From the sequence record OL631482.1: DNA of 64,000 nucleotides, one strand, 5' to 3'. How positions within the stretch are numbered: the first letter of the stretch is position 1; every line of letters begins with the position of its first letter. A program made the position numbers and the translations under genes. The notes below the pieces were generated by a model that was not told where the DNA came from, ran no database searches, and worked only from the letters and a program-made list of their open reading frames with translations. Of the stretch, positions 2,019-44,365 are shown piece after piece. The DNA comes from Escherichia phage ECML-359.

Positions 2019-2541
2019 CTTCTTTATCTTTGGCGCTCTTATCAGACCCTGGCGCTTTAACTAAAGAGGATTCGTACTGTGTCATTTTGTCATAGATGTC
2101 CTGGATAAATGTTTCATCAGCCAGAGCCACCATATCGTCGTCACGTGAATCATACACGTTATGAACGAAGTAGCTATATTTCTTTGCCATTTCTTTACGT
2201 TCTTTTTTGATACGCTGAACGAAAGCATTGAAGCAAGCCATTGTTATGTAAGCATGTGGATTATCGTATTTTGTTTCGTCGAAGTTATGAAGACCTTTTA
2301 TTGCGGCCTCAATTCCGTCTGCAATCATTTCTTGCTTCCAGGATTGGGTATATCCGGAGAAGTTGAAACGTTTGCTAAGACCTTCGGCTATAAGCATAAT
2401 TGCCAGACCAATAACATCGTTCTGGCGAATAATTTTATTCGGGTCGGTGTTCGCATTCAGCTTCTGTTTCCACTCCGAAATAGCTTTCAGAAGCTCTTTA
2501 TTATTTACATAGTTATTCTTGGTTAATTTAATTTCGTTCAT
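1984..2541 (-). CDS. 55: late-transcription sigma factor gp55
   Basis: 185 aa; near-identical blocks to T4 gp55 as recalled ([41 protein letters not shown]). Confidence 0.9.
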
Positions 2542-34572: not shown

Positions 34573-35004
34573 TTAAATTTCAAATTCTTTGCGGAAGTTG
34601 GAAGCATAAGACTGAACTGATGCTTTGTTGAATCCAAACTCACGCACAATCATATCAATAACAGCTCTGCGAGCAGCACCATTAGACATATTAACAGTTT
34701 TGAACATATCATAGCATAAATCTTTGTTGCTCATACCGGAGCGTTTAGGTGCCTTACGTTCAGCTTTAGGAGTAGGTTTAACTTCTGGTTTAACCTGTCC
34801 ATCATTCAGACCTTTAAAAATTTTACCTGCCAGAGTTGCCAGTTTAGCAGCTTCGCCACGAGTGATACCAAATACTGCCGGGTTAAATGAAATACCTTCA
34901 GCTGCCAGACGTTTGAAGAACATACGTGCTGCGGATTGTGCTTCAGCTTCAGAAGAGTTGTTTAATGCCAGCTTAACGTACTTAACCAGTTTTGAAGTTT
35001 TCAT
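34573..35004 (-). CDS. hypothetical protein, paralog of 35087..35512
   Basis: Shared C-terminal module NGAARRAVIDMIV...VQSYASNFRK. Confidence 0.55.
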   Translation of the reverse strand: MKTSKLVKYVKLALNNSSEAEAQSAARMFFKRLAAEGISFNPAVFGITRGEAAKLATLAGKIFKGLNDGQVKPEVKPTPKAERKAPKRSGMSNKDLCYDMFKTVNMSNGAARRAVIDMIVREFGFNKASVQSYASNFRKEFEI

Positions 35005-35086: not shown

Positions 35087-35512
35087 TTATTTTTGAGCTT
35101 TGCGGAAGTTGGAAGCATATGACTGAACAACAGTCTTTTTGATATCATGGGTGTTAACCAGAACATCAATCAGGGCGCGGCGAGCTGCACCATCTGCCAT
35201 ATCAATTTCTGCAAATGCCTGGAAGCAAATGTCACGAGCATTACCAGATTTGGACTGGATTTTTTCTTCTTTAACTTCTTCAATTGGGAATTCAATCATT
35301 TCAGCTTGGATTAATTCAATGATAGATTCTTTTGACTGTTTGGTGTTTACCTTCAGTTCAGAATTAAGGGACTTAGCGATGGCAACAATCTGGGTTGAAG
35401 TCAGATGAATAAGTGCATCTTCACGAATGCAGATTTCACATACTTCGTCGGCAACCATTTTGTTAGTGATGCGGGTAACAGAGAATGCAGAAGTCAGGGT
35501 CAGGAAGTTCAT
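35087..35512 (-). CDS. hypothetical protein, paralog of 34573..35004
   Basis: Start at MNFLTLT after cassette leader; C-terminal DGAARRALIDVLV...VQSYASNFRK. Confidence 0.55.
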   Translation of the reverse strand: MNFLTLTSAFSVTRITNKMVADEVCEICIREDALIHLTSTQIVAIAKSLNSELKVNTKQSKESIIELIQAEMIEFPIEEVKEEKIQSKSGNARDICFQAFAEIDMADGAARRALIDVLVNTHDIKKTVVQSYASNFRKAQK

Positions 35513-35618
35513 TTTATTTCTCCAAAGTTTTGTTTGATTCAGTGTGTAACTCAGTATGGAATCATTATGCATCCAGTCAATTCGGATGTACACTACTTTT
35601 TGAAGAAATATTAAAAAT

Positions 35619-36195: not shown

Positions 36196-36284
36196 ACGTT
36201 TCTCTTTAGTTGATTTATAAAAAAGCCCCAACCTTTCGGAAGGGGCTATACCTTGTCGGGGTTCCACCTGCAAGGCAAGTGTTC

Positions 36285-36668
36285 TTATCCGCGAGCGAAT
36301 GCCATTGCGGCGCGTTCGTTGGCACGGTCGGTGATGTTCAAGAATTTATCACGAGCGATTTCGATTGGAGCGCCAACCCAGTCAGCAGCACCATTACCTG
36401 GAGACTGTTTAGGGCGAACCATATAAGTTGAAACTTTAGAACCGGCCAGTTTGGCACCTGGTGCCGCGGCATTTTTAACGTCTTTAGCTTTGATGCCAAA
36501 CCCAGTTACGATACCCCAAGAAACACCATTAACTGGTTTCTTGAACATAACACGGTCACCAATTGAAACACCGGCTTTTTCTGGAGCCACTAAAGAAAAT
36601 TTACCAGCTTCAGTCAGTACGGATTCGGTGATGGTATTGCGATTTAAAAATTCTGCATATGTAAGCAT
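36285..36668 (-). CDS. putative virion internal protein with capsid-targeting-like N-terminus
   Basis: Starts MLTYAEFLNRNTITE, resembling MKTYQEFIxE; consensus late promoter 32 nt upstream. Confidence 0.55.
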   Translation of the reverse strand: MLTYAEFLNRNTITESVLTEAGKFSLVAPEKAGVSIGDRVMFKKPVNGVSWGIVTGFGIKAKDVKNAAAPGAKLAGSKVSTYMVRPKQSPGNGAADWVGAPIEIARDKFLNITDRANERAAMAFARG

Positions 36669-36699
36669 TTTGTTTTTCCATTATTAGGGTTGTTGTTAA

Positions 36700-36707
36700 T
36701 ATTTATA
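36700..36707 (-). promoter_or_regulatory. T4-type late promoter TATAAATA
   Basis: Exact TATAAATA on minus strand 32 nt upstream of ATG 36668. Confidence 0.5.
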
Positions 36708-36901
36708 TTCCATAGTACCGGATGCACCATCCGCTCGGATTTCTCATACTACCGGACGCACCGTCCGCTCTGGAAAAACTCCGTTAAAAGGGTGCGCCGT
36801 TTCAGCTGTGGTAGTAAAGAACCAGAACACAGTAAAACTGTGGGAGGAACTATACTTCAGGGAACGTCAGTCCGACGACTTACCGGTAGCGACCCGGTTT
36901 C

Positions 36902-37141
36902 TCATTCAATTGTAATAGCTAATTTGACTTTAACAACCTTATAATTGGAATCAAGGTCATTGAATTCCATAAAATTTGTTGCTAATCTGCGAGTCGGGAA
37001 ACTTAGATATTTATTATGCTCAGGTGGAGCAGTTAATGCAAACCATGGGACTTGTTTATCATTTTCATCAAACTCATCAAAGCTATAAACCAGCTCGTTG
37101 TTGGTTATATCCATAACTGCATATGATTCACTAATAACCAT
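36902..37141 (-). CDS. hypothetical acidic protein (about 80 aa)
   Basis: Start at internal Met (37141) with GAGGAT SD so it does not overlap tRNA-Arg. Confidence 0.45.
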   Translation of the reverse strand: MVISESYAVMDITNNELVYSFDEFDENDKQVPWFALTAPPEHNKYLSFPTRRLATNFMEFNDLDSNYKVVKVKLAITIE

Positions 37142-37156
37142 AATATCCTCGGTAAT

Positions 37157-37233
37157 TGGTCGGGGTGGTGGGATTCTAACCCACAACCTACGGTTTAGAA
37201 GACCGTTGCTCTATACAATTGAGCTACACCCCG
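37157..37233 (-). tRNA. tRNA-Arg (anticodon UCU), CCA encoded
   Basis: Hand-folded cloverleaf: acceptor CGGGGTG/CACCCCG, D stem GCTC/GAGC, anticodon stem ACGGT/ACCGT, loop CTTCTAA, T stem GTGGG/CCCAC. Confidence 0.8.
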
Positions 37234-37235
37234 GG

Positions 37236-37309
37236 TGGCCCCATCCGGACTTGAACCGGAAACCTGCCAGTTATGAGCCGGATGCTCTAACCAATTGAGC
37301 TACAGGGCC
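37236..37309 (-). tRNA. tRNA with CAU anticodon (Met or Ile2)
   Basis: Hand-folded cloverleaf: D stem GCTC/GAGC, T stem TCCGG/CCGGA with TTCAAGT loop, anticodon loop CTCATAA; one anticodon-stem mismatch. Confidence 0.65.
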
Positions 37310-38808: not shown

Positions 38809-39063
38809 TTATTTTTTAGGGATACGATAGTAACGCATCTCAACATCTTTCTGCTTGTGCCACTTTTTGATAAGGTCTTCAGAACCTTTAATGGTAACGA
38901 TGTCATAGCGACCATCATGCGATACTTCAGCACTTAACTGCATGAAGTTGTCTAGTGAACGGCGCAATTCCTCATTAGAAAAACTACCACGCGGGGAACC
39001 AACATAAGCAAACTCAACTTTTGCATCTGCGGCTTCGTTAATAAATTCTTGATAAGTTTTCAT
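38809..39063 (-). CDS. internal-protein-like virion protein with capsid-targeting N-terminus
   Basis: Starts MKTYQEFINEAA. Confidence 0.65.
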   Translation of the reverse strand: MKTYQEFINEAADAKVEFAYVGSPRGSFSNEELRRSLDNFMQLSAEVSHDGRYDIVTIKGSEDLIKKWHKQKDVEMRYYRIPKK

Positions 39064-42443: not shown

Positions 42444-43277
42444 TTATGAATTTCTCCATACTTTCTGGGAAGAGAATCTTTTGCCTTTCGACATAAATTG
42501 TTGCAACGGAAGCATAACAACGTTTGCCCAGTCGCTGGGCTTGATTTCAGTGATAGTACCTTTTATATTGCCAGGTATATATGCTTTAATCATCTGGTCA
42601 GCCCCTTTAAATCCCTTCACCTTTGACCAATCAATCTTCAGATGAGTCTTGTTCGTAATCGTAGGAGTATTAGCATATTGCTTAAGAAGTTCCTCAAGGA
42701 ACTCTTGACGTGCCTTCGGTGGAATATAGTGCAAGTTCAAACCGTACATCAAATTATGCTTACCTAGACCAAGATAAATGATTAACGGATATTTGTCCCA
42801 GTACGGAAGAGTATCCTTATGCTTTGCATCATAGATATAAGCATAAAGTTTGCCTGGTTGAGGTTTAGCCGTTACGTGACCGCGAACTGATTTCTTAATT
42901 GTCTCTGCGAACCATCTGGCGGATTTGGTGTTGCTTGCAGCGCCTTCGTTAGCAATCTTATCTCTTATGCTCTTCCTAAAGCTATTCACCATTATCAGCT
43001 GGCGTTCAGCCTTCGTAAGTTTACCAGCAGGTTTCTTTTTGAGCTTGGATACTTTATAAGCAGTCTGAATTCTTGAATGATACCTCGACATGCTTTTGGT
43101 AAAGGTCGAATAATTGATTCCTTTCTCTTCAGCAAACTTCTTCGAGGTCATTCCCTTTTCTTTTGCTGTATAAAATTCAACCCCTATCTCAACCCATTGT
43201 TGTTCGGATTTACTGGGTTTCGGACCTGGTTTATCTGCAGATTCATTGATAAATGTAAAAATACTCATCCTTTCCAT
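42444..43277 (-). CDS. 2: DNA end-protector protein gp2
   Basis: Basic protein in T4 gp2 position; alternative start ATG 43268 (MSIFTF). Confidence 0.85.
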
Positions 43278-43714
43278 CCTAATTTTTTCAGTGAGTTTTC
43301 AGTGATTATCCTGAACGTTATACCCATTTTATCTGCGGTAGCTTGCGCAGCTTTCCATTTGTCAGAGTTAACACTCCAGGTGTACATCTCGTTAATAAAT
43401 CTCTTTTTACTCGCGGCTGTATTATTAACCGGTTTGGTTGGAGGTCTTGTTTCTTTTAATGGCTTAACTTCAAAAAAGAACTGTTGTCCTGTATCAAACT
43501 TAACCCAGAAATCCATATAATATCTGCGCTTTTTCCCTTCAGCATTGCAGAAGTATGGAATAATCACAGTCTCAGAACCCCATTGAACAACGTTCGGATG
43601 GTTGTCGAGCCATCTCATCAACCACGCCTCCCAGCTTGACCGGTATTGTATTTTCTTCCAGTCGCCCTTATATTTTTCTATATTAGTGGGCTTAAATTTC
43701 CCGGAGTATGCCAT
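43265..43714 (-). CDS. 4: head completion protein gp4
   Basis: 149 aa; [31 protein letters not shown]...[10 protein letters not shown] matches T4 gp4 as recalled. Confidence 0.9.
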
Positions 43715-43762
43715 ATAGCCTCCTAATAAATATTGATATACTTATTTATAAATGGAGGCTTT

Positions 43763-44365
43763 ATGCTTTTTTCATTTTTTAACCCAATTGATTATGATGC
43801 TAAAACAATCAGAAAAAACTCGGCATCATTAACGAAAGAAGATGTCTTAAGCATCCCAATGACTGACATCTTCAGAAACTATCGTGCATATTTTGATAAG
43901 GTCGCGGTTAATTATACACCGAAAACATATTACATCGCCGGAGCTCCGAGACCTGAAGAACTTGCATATCAGCTCTATGGTAATACTCAACTCTATTGGG
44001 TTCTCCTTATGCTTAATAATATCTATGACCCGTATTATGGTTGGATATGTTCACAAGAATCATCATATCAGGCATCAATTCAACGCTATTCGAATATAGG
44101 TGGTAATCAGGTCCTTTATCATGTAAATGAAGACGGTGAAAAATTCTGGAATCTTGTTTCTTATCCTGATAATCCATACACATGGTATGATAAAGGTGAT
44201 AAGAACAAATTATACCCACAGTATGAAGGCCCATTAGCTGCAGTGGATATCTACGAAGATGCTATTCGCAAAAATGAATATAAACGAGAAATAAAGATAA
44301 TCGACCCTAATGATATCGAATCATTTATTTCGGCATTAATCCGCGAGATGGAGAAGGCGCTATGA
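43763..44365 (+). CDS. 53: baseplate wedge protein gp53
   Basis: Start at MLFSFFNPIDYDAKT with GGAGG SD (track start is an upstream TTG); PMTDIFRNY...YWVLLM...DPYYGW matches T4 gp53 as recalled. Confidence 0.85.
   Translation: MLFSFFNPIDYDAKTIRKNSASLTKEDVLSIPMTDIFRNYRAYFDKVAVNYTPKTYYIAGAPRPEELAYQLYGNTQLYWVLLMLNNIYDPYYGWICSQESSYQASIQRYSNIGGNQVLYHVNEDGEKFWNLVSYPDNPYTWYDKGDKNKLYPQYEGPLAAVDIYEDAIRKNEYKREIKIIDPNDIESFISALIREMEKAL

Follow-up and report, generated by a model that had tools for sequence, protein, structure and literature searches.

The rnaD gene and a hairpin-bearing late-gene cassette beside the tRNA genes of Escherichia phage ECML-359

We analysed a stretch of 64,000 nucleotides (sequence record OL631482.1), referred to below as the window, of Escherichia phage ECML-359, a T4-like myovirus belonging to Gaprivervirus. 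The interval downstream of its tRNA genes, which is free of open reading frames (ORFs), consists of two separate minus-strand elements: the gene of the small stable RNA rnaD (36905..36791) and, directly after it, the leader of a late-gene cassette (36790..36669). The finding is mostly an ordinary one, a known gene to which the locus adds modest new regulatory and evolutionary detail. The leader contains two tandem hairpins. They are real and conserved at the RNA level but of narrow distribution, being a feature of the cassette, whose late gene is an orphan and which displaced rnaC, the small stable RNA that follows rnaD in T4. As to their function, we hypothesized that the leader, in transcripts reading through from the tRNA/rnaD unit, adopts a fold that insulates the late gene. 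We would give this account, taken as a whole with its two elements, an even chance.

All genes around the interval, tRNAs included, are on the minus strand. In the order of transcription, they are tRNA-Met(CAU) (37309..37234), tRNA-Arg(UCU) (37233..37157), an ORF of 79 amino acids, a gap of 233 bp and an ORF of 127 amino acids starting at 36668. Both tRNAs were identified with ARAGORN and Rfam and make up the upstream portion of the same transcription unit. The nearest records are those of phages pEC-M719-6WT.2 (99.5%), EAWsc9 and VR20. A preliminary description of the window had pointed to 36711-36900 as a structured stretch with no convincing co-oriented ORF. This was borne out, as no minus-strand ORF is found from 36902, the stop of the 79-residue ORF, to the ATG at 36668. 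The same description had noted that T4 encodes two small stable RNAs beside its tRNAs, and this lead was right: the interval contains the orthologue of T4 rnaD, to which the 'further GC stems' mentioned there belong. Its proposal of a small-RNA gene was thus correct for 36905..36791 on the minus strand, but not for the tandem hairpins on which it had dwelt, since these lie outside the gene, downstream of its 3' end. The other idea put forward there, a processing signal, is one of several candidate readings of the hairpins considered below.

Almost certainly, the segment 36905..36791 is an rnaD gene orthologous to that of T4, whose small stable product is known as 'species 2' RNA or RNA D; the allele is of the T2 type. 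Homology, position and covariation all point to this already known gene. On the minus strand, the segment starts with AUGAGAAACCGGGUCGCUACCGGUAAGUCGUCGGACUGA and finishes with CACAGCUGAAACGGCGCACC, which are the termini of the T4 rnaD annotated in NC_000866. It agrees almost completely with the annotated T4 gene over the first 48 nt at the 5' end and the last 20 nt at the 3' end and, in a whole-length comparison, it shares 95.5% identity with the phage T2 allele over positions 4-115. The matching stretch is annotated as rnaD or species 2 RNA in RB68, RB7 and X03016. The gene is also found where it is in T4, in the tRNA cluster, on the same strand and downstream of tRNA-Arg. It differs from the T4 gene in its surroundings, as the T4 copy begins 1 nt after tRNA-Arg and is followed by rnaC, whereas in the window the 79-residue ORF stands between the two genes and the hairpin cassette comes next; it differs also in its apical domain, which is of the T2 and not of the T4 type.

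The predicted architecture of rnaD was assessed with 25 distinct alleles from T4, T2, RB69, IME08, SP18, other Gapriverviruses and IMG/VR contigs. Of the 22 consensus pairs predicted by RNAalifold, five show changes on both sides that compensate each other; pair 39-109, for instance, is U-A in 10 alleles and A-U in 10. Single-sequence folds of all alleles have in common a 5' hairpin, a long closing helix (GUCGUCG/CGGCG(C)AC), an inner helix and an apical hairpin that is variable. Rfam, searched at the gathering threshold and with E-values up to 10, matched the two tRNAs only and nothing over 36669..36905; it returned no family for 36791..36905, and the missing match therefore says nothing either way about rnaD. 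For T4, and for T4 only, it has been established that infected cells build up rnaD as a stable species about 115-120 nt long (PMC9697503). The literature has dealt with rnaD and rnaC for about half a century and assigns no function to either (PMC3014915, PMC9697503). In ECML-359, rnaD would presumably be excised from the tRNA-cluster transcript, as in T4.

Several observations concern the variation of rnaD itself. The best-covarying pair is a C-U mismatch in the window only (36866 C / 36804 U, minus strand), which sets this allele apart from that of T4; the nearest relative has A-U. The apical domain (36810..36860, minus strand; alignment columns 49-100) exists in at least three versions of unrelated sequence, T4-type, T2-type and SP18-type, all of which are hairpins. 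These versions reassort across genera, the window having the T2 type and its relative VR20 the T4 type. This variety suggests a swappable specificity element or diversifying selection. In TH41 and UPEC01 (L013 and L016 among our compared loci), rnaD is divergent, GGACUGA...CAGCUGAAAC being replaced by GGGGCCUG...CAUCAGGCAC. The change yields a perfect 5-bp inner helix, GCCUG/CAGGC, and looks like a block of compensatory change. A convergent T-to-C single-nucleotide polymorphism within rnaD was reported in a 2025 evolution experiment on host adaptation (PMC12685909); the paper gives neither an accession nor sequence context, and the change could not be mapped onto the allele of the window.

A sigma-70-like site, TTGTTA-16-TACAAT, is present at 36909..36936 (minus strand), within the 3' end of the 79-residue ORF. 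It would set a start at about 36902, at the conserved 5' end of rnaD. This predicted site could be rnaD's own promoter where an ORF parts the gene from the tRNAs, or it could be a chance match, six sigma-70-like sites having been found in the scanned region for 3.3 expected. On the other strand, a plus-strand ORF of 84 amino acids (36690..36944; WMU95760.1 in pEC-M719-6WT.2, OQ845958; L002 4391..4645) runs antisense to rnaD. We rejected it as very likely spurious because its frame is open only in phages with a T2-type rnaD allele. Shorter versions of this protein are annotated in other GenBank records, while rnaD is annotated in none of the cassette-bearing records examined. Of practical note, it is several GenBank records that annotate such an antisense protein across rnaD.

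The cassette comprises the 122-nt leader with its two hairpins, a late promoter (TATAAATA), a Shine-Dalgarno region and the 127-residue ORF. The leader begins with CUUUUAACGGAGUUUUUCCA (36771..36790, minus strand), at the left junction of the cassette, directly after the ...GGCGCACC end of rnaD. It continues with two direct repeats of a 34-nt unit, GAGCGGAYGGUGCRUCCGGUASUAUG plus a spacer (36711..36770, minus strand). Two tandem units had indeed been described; they occupy 36711-36736 and 36745-36770 and are 88% identical, but their start-to-start spacing is 34 and not 33. Each contains a perfect hairpin. Hairpin 1 (36753..36767, minus strand) is CGGACG GUG CGUCCG in RNA, CGGACG cac CGTCCG in DNA, and hairpin 2 (36719..36733, minus strand) is CGGAUG GUG CAUCCG, CGGATG cac CATCCG in DNA. 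The stems are of 6 bp rather than 5 as first described, and the loop reads GUG in RNA, not CAC, because the genes in this region, tRNAs included, are all on the minus strand. One position needed to be shifted by a base, the GGACG..CGTCC of the hairpin with the higher coordinates being at 36754-36766. The difference in the stem between the two copies was rightly called compensatory: hairpin 2 has a U-A pair where hairpin 1 has C-G, which leaves one other among the three positions at which the paralogous units differ.

The tandem hairpin pair is not due to chance. The degenerate 15-mer occurs at these two places only in the 64 kb of the window, with 0.12 occurrences expected. Perfect GC-rich hairpins with a 6-bp stem and a 3-nt loop number six in the window, and two of them are found here, 34 bp apart. 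A covariance model of the unit, a search that the preliminary description had proposed, retrieved these two copies only (58.5 and 47.8 bits; next best in the window, 12.9). The same model found no copy in 19 loci from other T4-like phages, and the unit was not found beyond this locus in the whole VR20 genome or in IMG/VR. A dispersed repeat family was thereby ruled out, the unit being confined to a single locus in these searches. When a loosened hairpin pattern was run against metagenomes, at least 120 single matches were obtained, all consistent with chance; none among the matches listed stood in a T4-like context. Conservation of the hairpins in related phages had been suggested as a check. 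They are conserved in the 15 GenBank records with the cassette, but they are absent from T4, T2, RB69 and SP18, which have rnaC at this place.

Variation among the cassette-bearing relatives indicated that base pairing is maintained. At the fourth position of the hairpin 1 stem, nine genomes have A-U and six have G-C (VR20, TH40, TH41, DK-13, UPEC01 and MN01), and no half-changed intermediate of this double change was seen in more than 20 sequences, extra metagenome copies included. In hairpin 2, the variable pair is A-U, or G-U in TH40 and TH44. The G-U pair is valid solely in RNA read from the minus strand, which is the coding one, and this favours an RNA element over a DNA palindrome. Across 11 distinct leaders and the three helices that we propose (the two hairpins and a long-range helix described below), all 229 of 229 pair cells are standard pairs, for 32-55% in controls with slid partners. 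All four variable helix columns keep their pairing (A-U/G-C, A-U/G-U or G-C/G-U).

The leader is also constrained in its rate of change. It differs at about 5 of 122 nt and, in the same comparisons, the adjacent ORF differs at up to 23 of 128 third codon positions, which makes its rate of change several times lower than that of the neighbouring synonymous sites. Between hairpin 2 and the ATG, a span of 66 nt, the 11 distinct leaders show one substitution only, the C to U of P8; an A run also varies in length, and two metagenome contigs have an additional CAA repeat. Because the sample is small and made of close relatives, this evidence of selection is supportive and not conclusive. These findings suggested that the hairpins are probably selected RNA structures acting in read-through transcripts, a conclusion that we favour with some reserve. 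Two further candidates were discarded. An RNase III site was dismissed, the 6-bp stems being far too short for this enzyme, and a 14-amino-acid minus-strand mini-ORF starting from the AUG in GUAGUAUGAG loses its start codon in TH44.

Comparison of the loci showed that the slot following rnaD ...GGCGCACC exists in three states with identical flanks. In T4, T2, RB69, SP18 and P479, it holds GAAUUA and rnaC, which begins 6 nt after rnaD. In IME08 and several IMG/VR contigs (L020, L025-L027 and L029), it is empty and GAACACUUGCC... comes directly next. In the window, in 15 GenBank records and in several metagenome contigs, it is filled by a cassette of about 500 bp. The 15 records represent 14 phages, all of them Gapriverviruses where classified, and these records, like the window, lack rnaC. 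The cassette is accessory within the genus, as SP18 and P479 carry rnaC instead. With rnaC (species 1 RNA) of T4 it shares the genomic slot only, after rnaD and ahead of a common terminator, and it has no sequence or structural similarity to it. On its other side, the cassette borders on the GAACACUUGCC flank and the terminator-like element that stand behind rnaC in T4; this hairpin with U6 (36218..36247, minus strand) follows rnaC in T4, T2 and SP18, was found by alignment and has a fold z-score of -3.5.

A second variable slot lies just upstream of rnaD. In T4 and TH40, the tRNA comes there directly. The window and SP18 have the 79-residue ORF (36902..37141, minus strand; phrog_33509), which is located between tRNA-Arg and rnaD, whereas in T2 and RB69 the place is taken by an unrelated ORF, about 115 amino acids long (other coordinates of this slot are L004 1151..1501, L030 360..704 and L007 ~2090..2140). 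The stop codon of each of these ORFs overlaps the first bases of rnaD; in the window, it is TGA. Thus rnaD is a fixed anchor between two insertion points and is kept in every phage examined. The locus adds comparative facts on this pair of RNAs: rnaC is replaceable and dispensable in nature, since it is absent or displaced by a protein-coding cassette, and rnaD is retained, with the at least three versions of its apical hairpin mentioned above.

What the leader might do is suggested by the position of the promoter. An exact match to the T4-type late promoter consensus, TATAAATA (36700..36707, minus strand), stands 31 nt upstream of the ATG and is invariant in all relatives; its activity as a late promoter is predicted from this consensus. 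As it is downstream of the hairpins, these would be present only in RNA that reads through from the tRNA/rnaD unit, a read-through that we infer. In T4, the tRNA/rnaD unit is transcribed from early and middle promoters. We hypothesized that a leader fold specific to read-through RNA would silence the late gene during early and middle transcription, with the hairpins as structural parts of this fold. The segment GUUUUUCCA (36779..36771, minus strand), 3 nt upstream of hairpin 1, would pair with the Shine-Dalgarno region UGGAAAAAC (36672..36680, minus strand), which precedes the AUG at 36668..36666 and is about 90 nt further on. Between these distant arms, the local hairpins would compact the loop of about 90 nt and let them meet. 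Late transcripts would start within the loop and lack the 5' arm, hence they would be translated.

The proposal has a precedent in T4. The ribosome binding sites of its genes e, soc, 49 and I-TevI are paired with a stretch of RNA encoded ahead of the late promoter, and translation occurs solely from late transcripts, which begin within the structure (PMC3014915). The cassette leader resembles these leaders, and also that of mobE of phage Aeh1, in that the segment complementary to the Shine-Dalgarno region is located 5' of the late promoter, because of which this region could be hidden only in read-through transcripts. The stem is of 9 bp, as in T4 e. It differs in that the arms are separated by about 90 nt with two conserved nested hairpins, for about 12 nt in e, and in that the stem is AU-rich and is a context-dependent prediction, made from sequence and folding alone. 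If true, the leader lock would extend the translational lock of the T4 lysozyme type to a long-range form with several hairpins, and would explain how an orphan late gene can enter an early transcription unit without being mis-expressed.

Several results are consistent with this helix. The arm GUUUUUCCA (36779..36771) is a perfect 9-nt complement of UGGAAAAAC (36680..36672). Of 5000 dinucleotide shuffles, 24 gave a complement of this length, as did 15 of 1279 natural windows. The minimum free energy fold of an RNA extending from the rnaD 3' end to +39 contains the 9-bp helix between arm and Shine-Dalgarno region, with the hairpins nested in it and TATAAATA in the enclosed loop. In this model of the read-through RNA, the G residues of the Shine-Dalgarno sequence are only 3-4% unpaired, a value equalled in 1.5% of upstream shuffles. 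The one substitution in the helix, the C to U of P8, turns a G-C pair into G-U and keeps the pairing, and the other eight of the nine pairs never vary.

A number of findings weigh against the lock. The predicted probability of the helix is 0.73, 0.23 or 0.95 depending on the length of ORF included and falls below 0.05 when rnaD is attached upstream, for a full range of 0.01 to 0.95. The same G residues are only 17% unpaired in the model of the late transcript, so the predicted contrast is small. A competing helix of CGGAG-UUUUUC with GAGAAAUCCG, which encloses hairpin 1, takes the same arm. The helix is nearly invariant and is therefore without true covariation, and homopolymer lengths are off by one in some relatives (GGAAAAC in TH55, UPEC07 and MN01; UUUUUU in TH54). 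The complementarity was spotted post hoc, and one as good occurs in 1.2% of natural windows. The enclosed loop of about 90 nt far exceeds those of the T4 examples (12 nt in e), the occlusion model has no strict need for the hairpins, and the TATAAATA motif is not enriched in the window (seven found for 6.4 expected). Our literature search found nothing on Gaprivervirus transcripts or on this hairpin element. Because the helix depends on context, the contrast is small, a competing helix exists, homopolymers vary and the discovery was post hoc, we hold occlusion of the ribosome binding site specifically to be no more than a tentative model, to which we lean less than to the leader structure itself. 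Bolder still, and in our view unlikely as a whole, is the idea of a long-range lock of the T4 type in which two nested clamp hairpins would make a 9-bp helix between arms 90 nt apart fold reliably, the cassette being a mobile, self-insulating one that took the place of rnaC, a stable-RNA gene, at a boundary of RNA processing.

A textbook lock of this design, with a late promoter in a hairpin, occurs elsewhere in the window, at about 43712..43766 (minus strand), and counts in favour of the proposal. There, CAUAAAGCCUCC pairs with GGAGGCUAUAUG, burying both the Shine-Dalgarno sequence and the AUG, and TATAAATA (43750..43743) is in the loop; the structure precedes an ORF of 149 amino acids (43714..43265).

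We considered the possibility that the hairpins are attenuators or terminators of transcription, which would stop or lower read-through before the late promoter, isolating the cassette in transcription, in the manner of the PeSL/PmSL stem-loops. In the latter, cassettes of stem-loop and promoter flank orphan genes at insertion/deletion sites in hyperplastic regions, and such stem-loops lowered transcription in reporter tests (PMC2839356, PMC4122927). The layout here matches theirs, with stem-loops, promoter, Shine-Dalgarno sequence and orphan ORF in succession at an insertion/deletion site, and the cassette is likewise a self-contained module present or absent between close relatives (Arbiol 2010, Comeau 2014). 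In T4, a terminator follows rnaC; an upstream barrier would make sense here, the first strong terminator being placed only behind the 127-residue gene. Yet neither hairpin was reported by a scan for intrinsic terminators, the letters that follow them, GUAGUAUG and GUACUAUG, not being U runs, and the stems have only 6 bp and about -9 kcal/mol each. The units also lack a sigma-70 or MotA-type promoter: no sigma-70-like or Mot-box promoter was found by scanning 36669..36790, nor a TGCTT box by reading it. The promoter of the window is of the late type, TATAAATA, and not sigma-70 or Mot, the stem-loops do not have the G-run/C-run form and the module is single-copy, unlike the PeSLs, which are dispersed recombination repeats. 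These differences make attenuation unlikely, though it is the strongest of the alternatives.

Marginally less probable is a role in the maturation or stability of the upstream stable RNAs, through an endonuclease cut after rnaD, at GGAG or at the AU-rich CUUUUAAC, or through a block to 3' exonucleases; in the second case, an extended RNA made of rnaD and the hairpins would accumulate. Such a role would fit the loss of rnaC and of its RNase P site in cassette phages, as well as the place of the hairpins, which start 24 nt after the rnaD 3' end and would be in read-through RNA only; in rnaC-bearing phages, the next structured element is 6 nt away. It would also fit the GGAG at 36782..36779 (minus strand), which is invariant while its flanks vary; GGAG is the motif at which T4 RegB cuts. 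However, the empty-slot phages listed above retain rnaD without the hairpins, indicating that rnaD does not need them. Moreover, a 3' hairpin would hinder trimming back to ...CACC, and nothing links the hairpins to any nuclease.

The tandem units might also be a functionless leftover of a duplication, for example of an ancestral module of a hairpin plus a late promoter. This would agree with the accessory nature of the cassette, missing from SP18 and P479 of the same genus, with the fact that the unit is known from this locus alone and with the close relationship of all copies, whose conservation could come in part from recent descent or transfer. It is hard to reconcile with the four of four variable helix positions that keep pairing, one of them by the double A-U to G-C change without intermediates in more than 20 sequences, with the compensatory pair that makes up two of the three differences between the units or with the slow change of the leader relative to neighbouring synonymous sites. 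We therefore consider a leftover improbable. A smaller chance is given to the two 15-bp palindromes being DNA operators for a dimeric protein controlling the late promoter. They are perfect dyads (CGGAYG-N3-CRTCCG), 34 bp or about three helical turns apart, TATAAATA lies about 22 bp downstream of the centre of the proximal one, and symmetric double changes would keep a palindrome just as they keep a stem. But the variant of TH40 and TH44, CGGGTG...CATCCG, breaks the DNA dyad and keeps the G-U pair in RNA, and no further copy of the site is present in the window. No upstream operators are known for T4-type late promoters. Equally remote is a new small stable RNA (~36790..36710) in place of rnaC and perhaps in its role. 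The leader is structured and conserved and sits exactly in the rnaC slot after rnaD; yet nothing in it is similar to rnaC, it has neither a tRNA-like arm nor an Rfam match, it lacks a promoter or terminator of its own, its fold is only modestly better than those of shuffles (z = -1.6) and its 3' part overlaps the promoter and the 5' untranslated region.

The gene served by this leader is an orphan predicted late gene (36285..36668, minus strand), conserved as an ORF. In the other records, its nucleotide sequence differs from that of the window at up to 23 positions, every one of them a third codon position, and the 127-residue protein is 100% identical in 14 of the 15 GenBank records and 99.2% identical in pEC-M719-6WT.2. 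The near-constant protein, set against these third-position differences, shows that this is a real gene in sequences that have had time to diverge. The protein belongs to no Pfam or PHROG family and, among 5.8 billion proteins, had no relatives outside the same phage group. A single-sequence AlphaFold model was unusable (predicted local distance difference test score, pLDDT, 36). The start of the protein, MLTYAEFLNRNTITESVLTEAGK, looks like the leaders that direct T4 internal proteins to the prohead and are cleaved by a protease, and the protein may be a new injected internal protein, as judged by this resemblance. T4 IPI reads MKTFKEF...STITE/ATLTS, and another ORF of the window (39063..38809) begins with MKTYQEFINE.

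Two last observations concern the neighbourhood. The CAU-anticodon tRNA (37234..37309, minus strand) is tRNA-Met according to ARAGORN and most records, and tRNA-Ile2 (lysidine type) in the EAWsc9 record. Farther downstream, two neighbouring ORFs (34573..35004 and 35087..35593, both minus strand) have very similar C-terminal segments (...GAARRA[VL]ID[MV][IL]V...VQSYASNFRK...) and look like tandem paralogues; in the EAWsc9 record, the corresponding gene, the last annotated coding sequence in L005, is labelled as having a rho-N domain.

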